Source: a virus (taxonomy: Duplodnaviria > Heunggongvirae > Uroviricota > Caudoviricetes). Taken from it: a stretch of DNA of 38,097 nt. The DNA lies in the IMG/VR virus record IMGVR_UViG_2778261087_000005. One strand, given 5' to 3'. Positions within the stretch are counted from its first letter, which is position 1, and the number at the start of each line of letters is the position of its first letter. Below the pieces are notes generated by a model. It was not told the origin of the DNA. It saw nothing but the letters and a program-made list of their open reading frames with translations, and searched no databases. Of this stretch, positions 2,407-14,958 are shown piece by piece. The position numbers and the translations under genes are program-made.

Positions 2407-2706
2407 TTAGTCTTCCTGTACCAGAACAGTGTCATCTGGGACCTTAATAGTAAGGACAACGCTATACCCCTTATCGTGAGTGCTGAACGATGTTTCCCAT
2501 TGTGGGATTGGCACATCTTCATCAACCTGGCAGATACCGATAGACCAACAGCCGATGTCGGTGTATGTGGCGATTACTTGCATTTCACCTTCAGCTGATT
2601 TCAGGTGATAGATGCCCGGATGATTGAAGCAACTAATCTCCTCTCGAATCGCTCCTTCGCACTCGAACAGGTCATCACTTGCTCCATAAAAACGTAATTC
2701 CTTCAT
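2407..2706 (-). CDS. Hypothetical phage early protein
   Basis: 99-aa ORF; SD AAGGAG 5 nt upstream of ATG 2706, overlapping the stop of the upstream gene (operon arrangement). Confidence 0.6.
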   Translation of the reverse strand: MKELRFYGASDDLFECEGAIREEISCFNHPGIYHLKSAEGEMQVIATYTDIGCWSIGICQVDEDVPIPQWETSFSTHDKGYSVVLTIKVPDDTVLVQED

Positions 2707-2715
2707 AATCTCTCC

Positions 2716-3000
2716 TTAGAACGGGCAGCCGGTACGGTGTTCCCAGTCGTATTCCGCCTGGGCGTAAGCAACTGCCGAAATGAAATCGTTGTAGGCCTCG
2801 CCAGCTTTATCGCTGCGAAGTCCTTCGTATGGGCTGGAGTCAATCGGTATGGAGAAGTGGAAGAGGCCGGACGGCTCTTTTGGCATCATGTCGATGATTT
2901 TCTGTGCCCGGTCGTCGATCCACTTCTCTTTCTCGTCGTCGAGCTGCTGCTCAACCCAGCGCCGATCTTCGATTCGGTCGTAAGTGAGGTATGCGTTCAT
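2716..3000 (-). CDS. Hypothetical acidic phage early protein
   Basis: 94-aa ORF; SD AGGAG 7 nt upstream of ATG 3000. Confidence 0.6.
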   Translation of the reverse strand: MNAYLTYDRIEDRRWVEQQLDDEKEKWIDDRAQKIIDMMPKEPSGLFHFSIPIDSSPYEGLRSDKAGEAYNDFISAVAYAQAEYDWEHRTGCPF

Positions 3001-3072
3001 GGCTGAACTCCTGAAATTTGGATGTGCAGATCCCGCCCGCGTAATGCCAGGCCGATCGGTTGAATAGGGTGG

Positions 3073-3270
3073 TTACTGCTGTGCGATGGATTTCGCCGGG
3101 AACTCGCCGTTGCGGAGGATGCTTTCTACCGGCCAGCACTCAGCTGACACTTTCTGCTCTGTAGCTGCCTGGCTGCATTCCTGCTGGCTGTCGTAAACGC
3201 CGAGAATGACATCCTGATAATCACCGTTTGTCATTGCTACGGTCAGGACGAGCGCGAATAAAGTTTCCAT
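3073..3270 (-). CDS. Small hypothetical protein with hydrophobic N-terminus (METLFALVLTVAM...)
   Basis: 65-aa reading from the internal ATG at 3270; that ATG overlaps the stop of the upstream 42-codon ORF as ATGA (translational coupling). Confidence 0.45.
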   Translation of the reverse strand: METLFALVLTVAMTNGDYQDVILGVYDSQQECSQAATEQKVSAECWPVESILRNGEFPAKSIAQQ

Positions 3271-3398
3271 CAGTGAAGAGTCCTCCCGATGGCGACGGCG
3301 TAAAGACGCTTTGCTTCTTCCCACGCCGGAGCATTGCGATGGAGTACCGCGAACGACGCTAGCCGTTGGGCCTCTCTGATCTGCTGCTGGTTTACCAT
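3270..3398 (-). CDS. Small hypothetical protein (42 aa, MVNQQQIREAQRLASF...)
   Basis: Not in the supplied ORF track (below 60 aa); translated by hand; SD AGAGGA 4 nt upstream of ATG 3398; ATGA overlap with the next gene. Confidence 0.4.
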   Translation of the reverse strand: MVNQQQIREAQRLASFAVLHRNAPAWEEAKRLYAVAIGRTLH

Positions 3399-3927: not shown

Positions 3928-4149
3928 ATGCAAACCATGCGGACCGTGTGCCCTGACTGCGGAAGTGAGATGTTCAACCAGCCCGATGATTTTGACTTTG
4001 AGACAAATTTCACCGGCGTCAGTTGTGCTGACTGTGGTCGAGAAATCACTAAGGACGATGTTGTCAATCAGGCCACGGACACGGTCAAAAAACAGATCGA
4101 CGACATGCTCAGGAATTCCCTGAAAGGAACTGGCTGGAAGTTCAAGTAA
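3928..4149 (+). CDS. Zinc-ribbon protein (CPDCG...x21...CADCG), Lar-like architecture
   Basis: 73 aa from ATG 3928 with SD AGGA 7 nt upstream; two CxxCG pairs. An antisense 115-aa ORF (3889..4236) with its own good SD overlaps it, so strand assignment is uncertain. Confidence 0.4.
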   Translation: MQTMRTVCPDCGSEMFNQPDDFDFETNFTGVSCADCGREITKDDVVNQATDTVKKQIDDMLRNSLKGTGWKFK

Positions 4150-9478: not shown

Positions 9479-9782
9479 GACGATGAAAGGCAAACAGGCA
9501 ATTCTGCGTTATCTCGAAACGCACCGGACCTTCACCGCGAAGGATGTGGCCACAGAGTGCGGCATGACCATCAACTGCATCACGAAGAACGCTATCGACC
9601 TGGAGCGGGCCCGCAAGATTGTCCGGGTGAGTAAGGTCTGGCGAACAGTGACTTATCGCCAGGCGACGCCGGAAGAGCAGGCTGGTACCGCGCGCAGCTG
9701 CACCAACGGAATATTTCTGGAGTGCCGGAACAGTCCGGCCATGAAGCGAGTATTGATGGTTTGGGGGAGGGTAGGGGTATGA
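9468..9782 (+). CDS. Hypothetical protein
   Basis: 104-aa ORF; ATG 9468 overlaps the helicase end; stop overlaps the next ATG as ATGA. Confidence 0.6.
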   Translation: MSAKTMKGKQAILRYLETHRTFTAKDVATECGMTINCITKNAIDLERARKIVRVSKVWRTVTYRQATPEEQAGTARSCTNGIFLECRNSPAMKRVLMVWGRVGV

Positions 9783-10067
9783 GTATTATTTACAAGAAAA
9801 CAGTAACACCATCTGAAGATTTGGCCTGAGTACTATTCAGCCGTTCGCGCAGGACAGAAGCGTGCAGAGCTCAGATGGAATGACCGAGATTACCAGGCAG
9901 GCGACAATCTCGATCTGTGCGAGTGGGACCCGAACGAAGAAGCCTTTACCGGTGAATTCACCAAAGTCACCGTTACACATGTCGCTGAACTTGGTAACTG
10001 GATACCGGGTTATGTACTGCTGAGTAACGCTCTTTTATCGCCAGCAGTGGATGTGAAAACGACCTGA
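9779..10067 (+). pseudogene. DUF3850/ASCH-like gene, apparently frameshifted near codon 10
   Basis: ATG 9779 opens a 16-codon ORF (MSIIYKKTVTPSEDLA). The conserved DUF3850-like body (HHLKIWPEYYSAVRAGQKRAELRWNDRDYQ...) is in another frame, preceded by an in-frame TAA at 9804-9806 with no canonical start. Removing one A in GTAACA (about 9802-9807) joins the two frames. Confidence 0.5.
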
Positions 10068-10222
10068 TGCCTTGCCCATACTGCGATGGAAAGGCTGAAT
10101 TTGATTATGACGACGATAACCTCAATTGGATATCTTGTAACGCGTGCGGAATCGCTGCACTTTATGATCATGAGAAGCCCGTGCTGACGGGCACAGAAAA
10201 CAGTACGGGTGCAATAAATTAG
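10067..10222 (+). CDS. Lar-like zinc-ribbon protein (putative restriction alleviation)
   Basis: 51 aa, MPCPYCDGKAEF...x17...CNACG; ATG overlaps the upstream stop (TGATG). Not in the ORF track (below 60 aa). Confidence 0.5.
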   Translation: MPCPYCDGKAEFDYDDDNLNWISCNACGIAALYDHEKPVLTGTENSTGAIN

Positions 10223-10656
10223 TACGAAACAATTATATCAAGCTTTTCTCCAATGATTTTCAAAGAAGAGTAGATGGATTGGCCTGAAGGAGATGGATTA
10301 CTGGAATATGAATTGTTGCCGCCTTCTAAGATGGAAGCTATTAAATTTAGTTGGTGTGACGCTTCAATCACATCGCTGTAAACTGGAGTAAGGCCTATTT
10401 TTGAGAAAAAATTATAGAATGGGATTGCTTTCGATTTTGCAATTAAAAGACCTGATGACGCCTTTAGCTCATGTATTAATTCGCTATTTGGCTTAAAATT
10501 CATTATTTTACTTTGCTCGCGAAGTAAGAGTGACGAAATTCTTCCCAGATGCTCCTTGAACGAGATATACGTTTCCAATGCGCATTTGGTTATTATTTGA
10601 CCTATGACGTAGACGGTCACACCAGTGATAATTGTAGTAAAAACAGTAAGCCACAT
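10219..10656 (-). CDS. Membrane-anchored hypothetical protein (AT-rich cargo gene, antisense to early operon)
   Basis: 145 aa; N-terminal TM helix (WLTVFTTIITGVTVYVIGQII); strongly AT-rich by eye; convergent with the Lar-like gene with overlapping stop codons. Confidence 0.65.
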   Translation of the reverse strand: MWLTVFTTIITGVTVYVIGQIITKCALETYISFKEHLGRISSLLLREQSKIMNFKPNSELIHELKASSGLLIAKSKAIPFYNFFSKIGLTPVYSDVIEASHQLNLIASILEGGNNSYSSNPSPSGQSIYSSLKIIGEKLDIIVSY

Positions 10657-10790
10657 AATCAGTTAACGCCTTTAGCTAAAATGCAATTATGTATCCTATA
10701 GCTCCAGTGATTTGTCCAGATAAATTGGGTGGTCATGGCACATCATCGCCGCGACTATAAGAATACTTTGCTCATACCGTTCGCGCCGCC

Positions 10791-10964
10791 ATGCTTCAGG
10801 GTGCCACGCAAGATAGCAACTCTCCGGTGATTCCGGATGGTTGGGTGATGGTTCAGAAGGAGCCAACGCCAGATATGCTTAATGCCGCCTGGGTGTCACA
10901 TGGCATTTACCATGCATCTGCTTATCGTACGATGCTCGCAGCAGCTCCGCAGCAGGTGAAGTGA
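10791..10964 (+). CDS. Small ORF (57 aa), possibly a gene remnant
   Basis: Hand-translated (MLQGATQDSNSPVIPDGWVMVQKEPTPDMLNAAWVSHGIYHASAYRTMLAAAPQQVK); no clear SD; low confidence. Confidence 0.25.
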   Translation: MLQGATQDSNSPVIPDGWVMVQKEPTPDMLNAAWVSHGIYHASAYRTMLAAAPQQVK

Positions 10965-11001
10965 CGAACAAGTTGACGAGAGTTACCATAGATATAAATC
11001 A

Positions 11002-11024
11002 AGGCCCCTAGGGGCCTTTTATTC
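11002..11024 (+). terminator. Intrinsic terminator
   Basis: AGGCCC-ctag-GGGCCU hairpin followed by UUUUAUU. Confidence 0.6.
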
Positions 11025-11057
11025 TATGATAAACGGACTTTGTTTGAGAGTGACGCT

Positions 11058-11384
11058 ATGAAGCCCAAGAAGCTAAATGCTGAGCAGCAATACAAATTAG
11101 ACCTTGAGTTGGTCAAGAAGAAACCTGCGAACCGTACAGAGGCAAAAGCCCATTTGGCGGCGCAGTTACGGATCAGCAAGTACAAGGCGCAGAACTCATC
11201 AAAAATCCGCGCAGGCAGTTTCAGGGGGCGGAAGAAGGTGCATTTCAGTAAGGCCGAAGACGAGGCCAGGGCAGCACTAAATAAAGCCAATGCCATTAGA
11301 TTTTCCGAAGGGGAGGTCGAATCCGTCGATACGGATCGAATCTCAGAAAGTAACAAACGCTGGCGCGGGAGAACTGCTGACTAA
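11058..11384 (+). CDS. Hypothetical basic (Lys/Arg-rich) protein
   Basis: ATG 11058 within track ORF 11040..11384; stop overlaps the next ATG (TAATG). Confidence 0.55.
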
Positions 11385-11632
11385 TGTCTGACTGGAACAT
11401 TGCAGCAAAGCCGCAGGAAGATCGCGATAAGGTTAACGTTGACCTGGCTGCCTCCGGAGTGGCGTACAAAGAGCGCCTGAATATGCCGGTTATCGCTGAG
11501 GTGGTGATGCGCGAGCAGCCAGAGCATTTGCGTGATTACTTCCTTGAGCGCCTGAAGTTTTATCGCGAGAAGTCGATAACTTTACCGAAAGTTAGCGATC
11601 CGTTTTACCTGAAACAGGAGGAAGGGAAGTGA
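11384..11632 (+). CDS. Hypothetical protein (82 aa)
   Basis: Translationally coupled on both sides (TAATG upstream, GTGA downstream). Confidence 0.55.
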
Positions 11633-12279
11633 TTATTGATGAACATTTTAAGGATAGAGTCTCGAGTCATCTATCTCAGAAAATAATCGAAGACGCATTA
11701 AATGGAAGGGGATTTTTCGCCCGAAATGTGTTGGAGTCCATTCGGCTTCTTGAGGGAATGAAGGTTGCCCCATCAACTTTAGCAATGCGTCATCAAGAGC
11801 GTGAATTAAAGGGTGCGTTGGCCGGATTTCATCATATACATGTTTCAGAGGATAATTTCACTCGAGCTTTCAATGCGTACAGGCAAAAAGGAGAAGCGCC
11901 TGAGAAAAATCCATCCGAGCCGGCTTTACAAGGCCGGGGCAATCGCAATGCTATTCAGATGTTTTTGGAGCAAAATGGAGTTAGTGCTAAAGATGCTTCG
12001 TTTGAAGAACTTATCATAAGATTCCAGGATCTTATTGAACAGATGGGAGAAGAAAATGCAAAAGAGCAAATTTCTCGTATTGCTGCTGAGCTATCTTGGA
12101 AACCGTTTAAGGGTAATGATGTAATTTCTGGAGACTGGCTAGTCTATTGGGTGAGACAGGACGGTGTAAGATTTTATATCGATAGTTTTGAACACATCCC
12201 CGCAACCGATACAAAACTGCAGAATTCCACCGCAAATTCATTACACGCCATTCTTCAAAGCATGGATACCGCCGTTTGA
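11629..12279 (+). CDS. Hypothetical 216-aa protein (AT-rich cargo gene)
   Basis: GTG start 11629 with strong SD AGGAGG about 9 nt upstream; visibly AT-rich compared with neighbours; no family recognised. Confidence 0.65.
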
Positions 12280-14062: not shown

Positions 14063-14175
14063 CGCGTGACCAGATTATGCGGTACCAGGCCGAAAGCGTT
14101 AAGCGCGCCAACCTGCCGCCAGTAGCAAACCACAGCCAGAACAAAACCAACCAGCCACATAAGGAAGCCGCATGA
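14059..14175 (+). CDS. Small ORF (38 aa)
   Basis: Hand-translated; overlaps both neighbours; low confidence. Confidence 0.25.
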   Translation: MTRDQIMRYQAESVKRANLPPVANHSQNKTNQPHKEAA

Positions 14176-14861
14176 ACAGTCAGCAACTGGAATACGTACG
14201 TCAGCAGCTCATTGTGGCGACCGCAGATCTGAGCGGGGCGACGAAAGGGCAGCTGGTAGCTTTTGCCGAGAATGCGCAATTCACCGCGACGGCGCGCAGC
14301 CGGGGCCGGAAAAAGGTATTCGACAAGGATAAGCAGCGCATGGTCAACCCGGATGGTCCGCCGATGAGCGGCAGCCAGTCACGCGCTAAGGGCTCGTCTA
14401 TCGCGCTGGTCAGCCCTGTGGAGTTTGGTACCGCGTCATGGCGCCGCGCCGTCCTGTCGCTGGAAGAACACCAGAAAGCGTGGCTGCTGTGGAACTACAG
14501 CGAGAATATCCGCTTCGAATACCAGGTGGCGATCACCCAGTGGGCGTGGGCAGAGTTCCGGGAACAGCTCGGCGCGAAGAAGGTGGCCGGCAAGACGATT
14601 GAGCGCCTGAAGAAGCTTATCTGGCTGGCGGCGCAGGACGTCAAAGCGGAGCTGGCGGGTAAGGATGTGTATCAGCATCAGGACCTGGCCGCCCTGTGTG
14701 GCGTTAAGCCGGATAACTGGTGTCATAACTACGCCGATTACTGGCTTGCCATGTGCGCCATCTTTAAGCGGCTTGATGGCGATTCACTCCTCTGTACTGT
14801 GAGAACACGATCACAACAAAAAGCGACTTTTTCGCAGCAGGGTATTGCAAAAGTCAATTAA
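14172..14861 (+). CDS. Putative late-gene antiterminator (Q position)
   Basis: 229-aa ORF as the last early gene before the lysis cassette; SD AAGGAAG; assignment is from position, family not verified. Confidence 0.45.
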   Translation: MNSQQLEYVRQQLIVATADLSGATKGQLVAFAENAQFTATARSRGRKKVFDKDKQRMVNPDGPPMSGSQSRAKGSSIALVSPVEFGTASWRRAVLSLEEHQKAWLLWNYSENIRFEYQVAITQWAWAEFREQLGAKKVAGKTIERLKKLIWLAAQDVKAELAGKDVYQHQDLAALCGVKPDNWCHNYADYWLAMCAIFKRLDGDSLLCTVRTRSQQKATFSQQGIAKVN

Positions 14862-14926
14862 ATAGCATACTTTTCATGTAAATCTGATATCTTCGCCATA
14901 GCTTTGTAGGACGACAAAGAATTAAC

Positions 14927-14958
14927 AGCCTCGCCATCGTGCGGGGCTTTGTTTTTTG
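14927..14958 (+). terminator. Intrinsic terminator about 65 nt downstream of the Q-position gene (tR'-like)
   Basis: 8-bp stem AGCCUCGC/GCGGGGCU with a 6-nt loop, followed by UUGUUUUUUG. Confidence 0.55.

Follow-up and report, generated by a model that had tools for sequence, protein, structure and literature searches.

Lar of the E. coli K-12 Rac prophage (Lar/RalR, b1348, 64 aa) is the founding member of the families PF14354 and TIGR03655, and scores 53.5 bits against PF14354 over positions 2-58. In the passages of PMC6158711 and PMC4041452 that cite King & Murray 1995, Rac Lar is the only protein credited with relieving type I (EcoKI) restriction and with increasing modification, and the same protein was later described as RalR, a DNase that acts as the toxin in a type I toxin-antitoxin pair with the antisense sRNA RalA (PMC4041452). 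Ral of phage lambda, a functional analogue of Lar, is a small early phage protein with two effects, relief of EcoKI restriction and increased modification (Loenen & Murray 1986 and King & Murray 1995, as cited in the passage concerned of PMC6158711), and this is the function that an earlier note on the present DNA had proposed for a 51-aa ORF. A search of the literature gave no structure-function data on the Lar helix, and no tested Lar-like protein beyond that of Rac.

The 51-aa ORF lies in a lambdoid prophage of E. coli. The window, by which we mean the whole stretch of DNA that was analysed, is 38,097 nucleotides long.

10067 to 10222, plus strand: the 51-aa ORF, ATG...TAG, the same as RefSeq WP_370926444.1 ('hypothetical protein')

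The 51 codons of 10067-10222(+) translate to MPCPYCDGKAEFDYDDDNLNWISCNACGIAALYDHEKPVLTGTENSTGAIN, in which the cysteines are arranged as C3-x2-C6, x17, C24-x2-C27-G28. The earlier note had given the same coordinates and the pattern CPYC-x17-CNAC, and had remarked that the ORF falls under a 60-aa cutoff; the frame reads as described, at 51 aa, and is confirmed as a real feature of the sequence. The note had also placed it in the early-right operon, which agrees with the gene order: a cro-like gene, YdaT, a replication protein, a DnaB-type helicase, ren and DUF3850 come before the ORF, and an opposite-strand hypothetical gene, HolE-theta, YbcN, NinE, NinG and Q follow on its 3' side. The locus is thus the early-right/nin region of the prophage. 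Between 9400 and 10700 the window is 100% identical to four complete E. coli genomes and 99.5% identical to two more.

Rac Lar and the 51-aa ORF are alike in having an N-terminal PCP[FY]C...C-x2-C ribbon and in being small prophage early genes. Rac Lar continues into a helix, EKEALERWNKR, whereas the ORF has an unrelated tail and covers profile positions 5-38 only, and Rac lar is found in the early-left region beside recET, together with the RalA sRNA, while the ORF belongs to the nin region. Lambda Ral is also encoded in the early-left operon, in contrast to the early-right/nin position here, and we claim no sequence relationship to it. The true closest relatives are a third kind of protein, the mosaic nin-region proteins with a Lar module that is internal or N-terminal (the 221-aa gene of the IMG/VR locus L010, and the proteins P0003-P0022). 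They share with the window the position ahead of a 114-aa gene and the HolE-theta gene, and the linkers at both ends of the module. They differ from it in being single ORFs with a complete module and a C-terminal domain, while the module of the window breaks off behind the ribbon and has the C-terminal part 630 bp away.

Lar is the top match of the 51-aa ORF in all three libraries that were searched, Pfam, PHROG and NCBIfam, and the curated cut-off is missed each time. Against PF14354 the score is 26.8 bits, short of the cut-off of 28.6, with residues 2-34 placed on profile positions 5-38 of 58; for TIGR03655 it is 19.1 bits where 39.6 are required; PHROG 599 ('Lar-like') matches with an E of 0.006; and the precomputed Pfam tag on the ORF is PF14354, graded 'weak'. 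The ORF is not a member of NF047912 (ECs_2282 family CxxC protein), to which it scores 16.5 bits against a cut-off of 37. The HMM search against the Lar family that the earlier note had proposed as a check has therefore a divided outcome: Lar is the best match, but at 26.8 bits it remains below 28.6 and covers the ribbon half of the profile only. The four-Cys zinc ribbon of the family (PCPFCG...C-x2-CG) is present, as C3, C6, C24 and C27, and the four residues align to invariant Cys columns in 26 relatives. The C-terminal W-N-x-R helix (profile positions ~40-58) is absent from the ORF, and the whole-protein cut-offs of PF14354 and TIGR03655 are not reached. A BLASTP alignment of the ORF directly with Rac Lar was limited to the PCPYC/PCPFC motif, and a sequence search of the PDB found no solved structure of the family. 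The note's Lar-like label thus stands for the ribbon, which is Lar by descent to judge from the library matches and from relatives that do pass PF14354, but not for the family architecture, as the helix is gone. An anti-restriction role, argued from the family name only, would be unlikely for a copy that is without half of the module. Neither the 51-aa ORF nor the neighbouring 145-aa protein matched a defence-system model in PADLOC.

A word-indexed protein search returned only two near-identical clusters, and it took an exhaustive phmmer search, of a library of 1.84 billion protein representatives, to reveal the relatives. Among its 80 matches the single other full-length one is a 96% identical variant. 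The remaining matches cover residues 1 to about 31 only, with the homology ending at residues 29-34 (74-77% identity, E 4e-10 to 1e-7). They include members that pass PF14354, and the related modules are 76-85% identical at the DNA level, so that common descent of residues 1-31 with accepted members of the family is clear. These relatives are mosaic phage proteins of 136-323 aa, which continue past the matched part as ...CGISTDTAYHTDVDARDKLREVWNRRAAMLQG..GNSPVIPDGW..., and the intact ones score 36-52 bits against PF14354, over positions 1-58 and above the cut-off. Their modules are joined to ead/Ea22-like N-terminal regions, to DUF551 and, in P0015, to a dATP/dGTP pyrophosphohydrolase domain. 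All 26 relatives in the alignment have the four Cys, and the W, N and R of the helix that follows the ribbon are at least 90% conserved; stand-alone family members of 56-67 aa also carry W-N-x-R. An HMM of the module made from the relatives only recognizes the ORF with 64.6 bits (E 3e-19 within the window), but again at positions 2-34 only, and it found no helix-coding sequence in the six frames of the 38-kb window. We also considered that the tail might hide a frameshifted helix, and rejected this, since W-N-x-R is missing from all three frames that follow 10153. Searches of a phage collection, with an intact relative and with the 145-aa protein, gave few matches in both cases, and these were distant.

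The Lar modules of enterobacterial lambdoid phages are mostly embedded in larger proteins rather than stand-alone (P0003-P0022; L010 2674-3339), and recurring linkers flank the embedded modules, APPAPVSVPDENGLLPCP... on one side and ...AAMLQG..GNSPVIPDGW on the other.

The break itself becomes visible when the window is compared by BLASTN with 18 related IMG/VR loci. Window positions 10054-10153 align to L010 2988-3087 at 80%, and 10782-11640 align to L010 3154-4015 at 85%; the loci L011 and L013 give the same two-block alignment. In L010 the two blocks are 66 bp apart and inside one intact 221-aa ORF (2674-3339), after which come the 114-aa gene and the theta gene that the window also has. 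In the window the corresponding blocks are 628 bp apart (10154-10781). The left junction is at 10153/10154, after ...TGCGGAATC, and the right junction at about 10781/10782, before CGCGCCGCCATGCTTCAGGGT. The 22 codons (66 bp) that were lost are exactly the Lar helix, STDTAYHTDVDARDRLRNVWNL, with the pattern DARxxLxxxWNxR. The parts of the broken gene and of what took the place of the helix are as follows.

10054 to 10153, plus strand: ancestral part, the linker and four-Cys ribbon (codons 1-29) of the PF14354 module, 76-85% DNA identity to related prophage modules
10154 to 10781, no strand: replacement segment of 628 bp, 35-38% GC, in place of the 66 bp of the relatives
10177 to 10192, minus strand: hairpin GCCCGTGCTGACGGGC in the foreign tail of the ORF, read from the sequence and absent from the output of the terminator scan
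10219 to 10656, minus strand: gene whose 145-aa product has a hydrophobic N-terminus and matches phrog_7512 over its full length (E 2.6e-37)
10782 to 10964, plus strand: orphaned 3' end of the broken gene, ...RAAMLQGATQDSNSPVIPDGWVMVQKEPT...AAAPQQVK*, placed by alignment to L010
11001 to 11018, plus strand: terminator-like hairpin AAGGCCCCTAGGGGCCTT followed by TTATT, past the 3' remnant, from the promoter/terminator scan

The 66 bp that encoded the helix gave way to 628 bp of AT-rich DNA, which is how the helix was lost, and the ORF therefore consists of a 5' stump and 22-23 foreign codons and is not a small stand-alone Lar gene. Comparison of the related loci makes it very probable that the stump is that of a mosaic gene with a Lar module, the helix segment of which was exchanged for foreign DNA. 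The orphaned 3' end matches the C-terminal parts of phrog_12449, phrog_60 and phrog_5913, and an ORF at 10791-10964, MLQGATQDSNSPVIPDGWVMVQKEPT...AAAPQQVK, corresponds to what comes after the module in the relatives. This ORF of 57 aa begins at an internal Met (10791), is without a Shine-Dalgarno sequence (+1.2 kcal/mol), and appears in two RefSeq genomes as the hypothetical protein WP_157911260.1.

The GC content of 10154-10781 is 35-38%, against about 50-55% in the flanks. The 51-aa ORF takes its codons 30-51 and its stop from the left 69 bases of this segment, with 10154-10219 as its final 22 sense codons, and the last 22-23 residues of the ORF found no match in the library of 1.84 billion proteins by phmmer. 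No terminal inverted or direct repeats were found around the segment, and there is thus no sign of a transposable element. Of 5426 complete E. coli genomes, only 6 have the segment, each time in the identical context.

The 145-aa gene on the opposite strand of this segment has its stop overlapping that of the 51-aa ORF by four bases (10219-10222). Homologues of 141-153 aa, with 48-86% identity, are present in Citrobacter, Klebsiella and Kosakonia, which means that the gene is real and that the RefSeq call, comprising the C-terminal 94 aa only, is too short. In other prophages, too, the full-length homologues are always nin-region genes that run against the operon and adjoin HolE-theta, but the other neighbours differ. 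A core, 10219-10727, has 81% DNA identity to Citrobacter prophages with different neighbours, and the homology is restricted to that stretch. As it begins exactly at the stop codon at 10219, the tail of the 51-aa ORF does not travel with the 145-aa gene. The gene may be a moron that is expressed in the lysogen, and the hairpin at 10177-10192 may serve as a weak terminator for it. The promoter/terminator scan gave counts no higher than in shuffled sequences, and another weak terminator-like hairpin, at 10144-10160 across the left junction, was taken as chance.

The same moron family has interrupted the same family of mosaic genes elsewhere. In L025, a prophage of Citrobacter type, a homologue of the moron (2501-2938) abuts a 36-aa stump at 2975-3085 on the minus strand, MTTNNHPVHGPVSLDRLHQISEILSKA..., which represents the N-terminus of a different Lar-module mosaic protein (P0009/P0013-like). 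As read from the alignment, L025 is a second case of truncation, at a different point. The present case is an example of AT-rich morons entering the small-domain mosaic genes of lambdoid nin regions and splitting them.

Predicted structures agree with a module that has been halved. AlphaFold2, given 10 aligned relatives, models the 51-aa protein as three short strands (pLDDT 75-81) without a helix, with residues 42-51 below pLDDT 50, and the foreign tail is thus predicted to be disordered. For the intact relative P0012 the model has the ribbon and a helix at 47-61, with pLDDT 85-93. A Foldseek search of the P0012 model against the PDB gave no match with E < 0.001 and returned generic zinc ribbons only; about 32 residues of such ribbons (the N-ribbon of RNA polymerase III C11, and ZifS) align to the model with an rmsd of 1.4-1.8, which is a likeness of fold class only.

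L023, a variant in a Logan assembly that is 98.3% identical to the window, allows a comparison of substitutions between the parts of the locus.

Ribbon part of the ORF, window against L023: 2 substitutions, both synonymous
Foreign tail of the ORF, window against L023: 2 substitutions, both non-synonymous (H35Q, T43I)
Opposite-strand gene, window against L023: 3 substitutions, all synonymous

This pattern fits a tail that is unconstrained and a moron that is under constraint, with numbers too small for a test, and constraint on the ribbon would be compatible with it as well. The ORF is open in every copy seen, namely in six E. coli genomes, two IMG/VR contigs and one Logan contig, the latter with an intact upstream gene. 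As all copies are at least 98% identical, this persistence says little in either direction.

The translation signals are poor in the window. The Shine-Dalgarno sequence of the 51-aa ORF has a pairing energy of -4.0 kcal/mol, where ren, theta, YbcN and NinG reach -7 to -12, and with so weak a site of its own the ORF would depend on coupling to the gene upstream.

9779 to 10067, plus strand: the DUF3850 gene, with a frameshift in comparison with L023, as the ACACAC run at 9805/9806 has a deletion of 2 bp

The earlier note had described the ORF as translationally coupled to this gene. The overlap on which that claim was founded exists, for the start ATG of the ORF overlaps the TGA of the DUF3850 frame (cgacc-TGATG-cc, 10065-10069), but the start of the upstream gene has been lost through the deletion. 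The strong Shine-Dalgarno sequence precedes only a 16-aa leader ORF (9779-9829), as the deletion makes the strongly initiated frame end at 9829 after 16 codons, and the DUF3850 frame has no ATG, GTG or TTG before 10047; the RefSeq start is an ATT at 9819, for an 82-aa product. With this frameshift, and with no canonical start before 10047, the stop-start coupling is probably ineffective in the window, and translation of the 51-aa ORF there appears doubtful. In L023 the DUF3850 gene is intact and encodes 96 aa, MSIIYKKTVTHHLKIWPEYY....

We propose the following history. In lambdoid phages of Enterobacteriaceae, mosaic genes of the nin region join a Lar module of about 58 residues, a four-Cys zinc ribbon and an amphipathic helix that ends in W-N-x-R, by short linkers to small domains. 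In the lineage of this prophage, illegitimate recombination or an insertion may have replaced the 66 bp coding for the helix by 628 bp of AT-rich DNA that carried the opposite-strand membrane-protein gene, the putative moron. The old gene was thereby cut in two: codons 1-29 now run into foreign DNA and stop after 22 unrelated codons, giving the 51-aa ORF, and the 3' part (10782-10964) is left without a module. Owing to the upstream frameshift and its own weak Shine-Dalgarno sequence, the stump is presumably poorly translated in the window, and if it is made it would be at most a bare zinc ribbon with a disordered tail, which would no longer perform the function of the family.

That the 51-aa ORF is the 5' stump of a gene with a Lar module, and an inactive remnant rather than a stand-alone Lar gene, is the reading we consider probable. 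It is likely as well, though we say this a little less firmly, that the stump has ceased to act as a Lar-type protein; this judgement, drawn from sequence and model, follows from the loss of the most conserved residues other than Cys, the disordered foreign tail, the poor translation signals and the rarity of the arrangement. As a counterpoint, the four Cys and the ribbon are intact, and the part of Lar that is needed for activity has never been mapped, so that the loss of the helix is no proof of a loss of function. Most likely the ORF is an ordinary remnant of a prophage gene and not a candidate anti-restriction gene. Its main importance is then for annotation, since a short ORF with a weak family match would easily be named 'Lar family restriction alleviation protein', while the intact relatives reveal a broken gene that is without half of the module.

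The alternative that survives best, although it is unlikely, is a functional small Lar-like anti-restriction protein, expressed early from pR, which alleviates type I restriction or enhances modification as Rac Lar does. Lar at the top of the Pfam, PHROGs and NCBIfam matches, with PF14354 as the (weak) precomputed tag, is what such a protein would show, its zinc ribbon is complete and adopts a fold in the model, and in L023, where the upstream gene is intact, stop-start coupling could work. Yet it scores under every curated cut-off, the conserved W-N-x-R helix is deleted, the tail is foreign, unique and disordered, the ORF was born of an event that broke a gene, and the signals for its translation in the window are poor. 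Moreover, Rac Lar is the only member ever tested, and it has also been reported as the DNase toxin RalR (PMC4041452).

We regard it as improbable, slightly more so than the above, that a bare ribbon with an accidental 22-residue tail is made and active, or that the break created a small protein which works with the inserted membrane-protein gene. Were the bare ribbon active, the ribbon alone would be the business end of Lar-type proteins, and an active stump would define a minimal functional unit for the family; nothing here points to activity. The more specific idea, that the stump has acquired a new role with the 145-aa gene, either as a partner zinc-ribbon protein or through its transcript as an antisense regulator, we find very improbable. 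The convergent stops do overlap by four bases (10219-10222), and the ORF is open in all copies with the junction, but homologues of the 145-aa protein occur elsewhere without such a partner, in differing flanks and with a DNA homology that starts at 10219, and neither protein matched a defence-system model. The reverse direction, in which the short form is ancestral and the long mosaic genes arose by later loss of the AT-rich segment, has nothing specific in its favour beyond the fact that only contemporary sequences are compared, and can hardly be credited, as the helix is in the family profile across all lineages (including the stand-alone proteins of 56-67 aa and Rac Lar), the segment has a foreign base composition and is found as a cassette elsewhere, and the arrangement is found in no more than a few near-identical prophages.

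Some other features of the window may be mentioned. The HolE homologue (DNA polymerase III subunit theta; 11384-11632, plus strand) matches PF06440 with 116.8 bits, and a theta gene adjoins the position of the moron in every related prophage examined. No sRNA family was found near the 51-aa ORF at the Rfam gathering threshold, RalA perhaps being outside Rfam, and the sole match in the window is isrJ, an Hfq-binding sRNA, at 14877-14950 on the plus strand (54.8 bits, gathering score 37), directly 3' of the gene for the antiterminator Q (14172-14861). The early-left region encodes another small CxxC protein, at about 3970-4149 on the plus strand, which is a true member of NF047912 and is named by RefSeq an ECs_2282 family putative zinc-binding protein; it scores 9.9 bits against the module HMM and has no relation to the Lar module.
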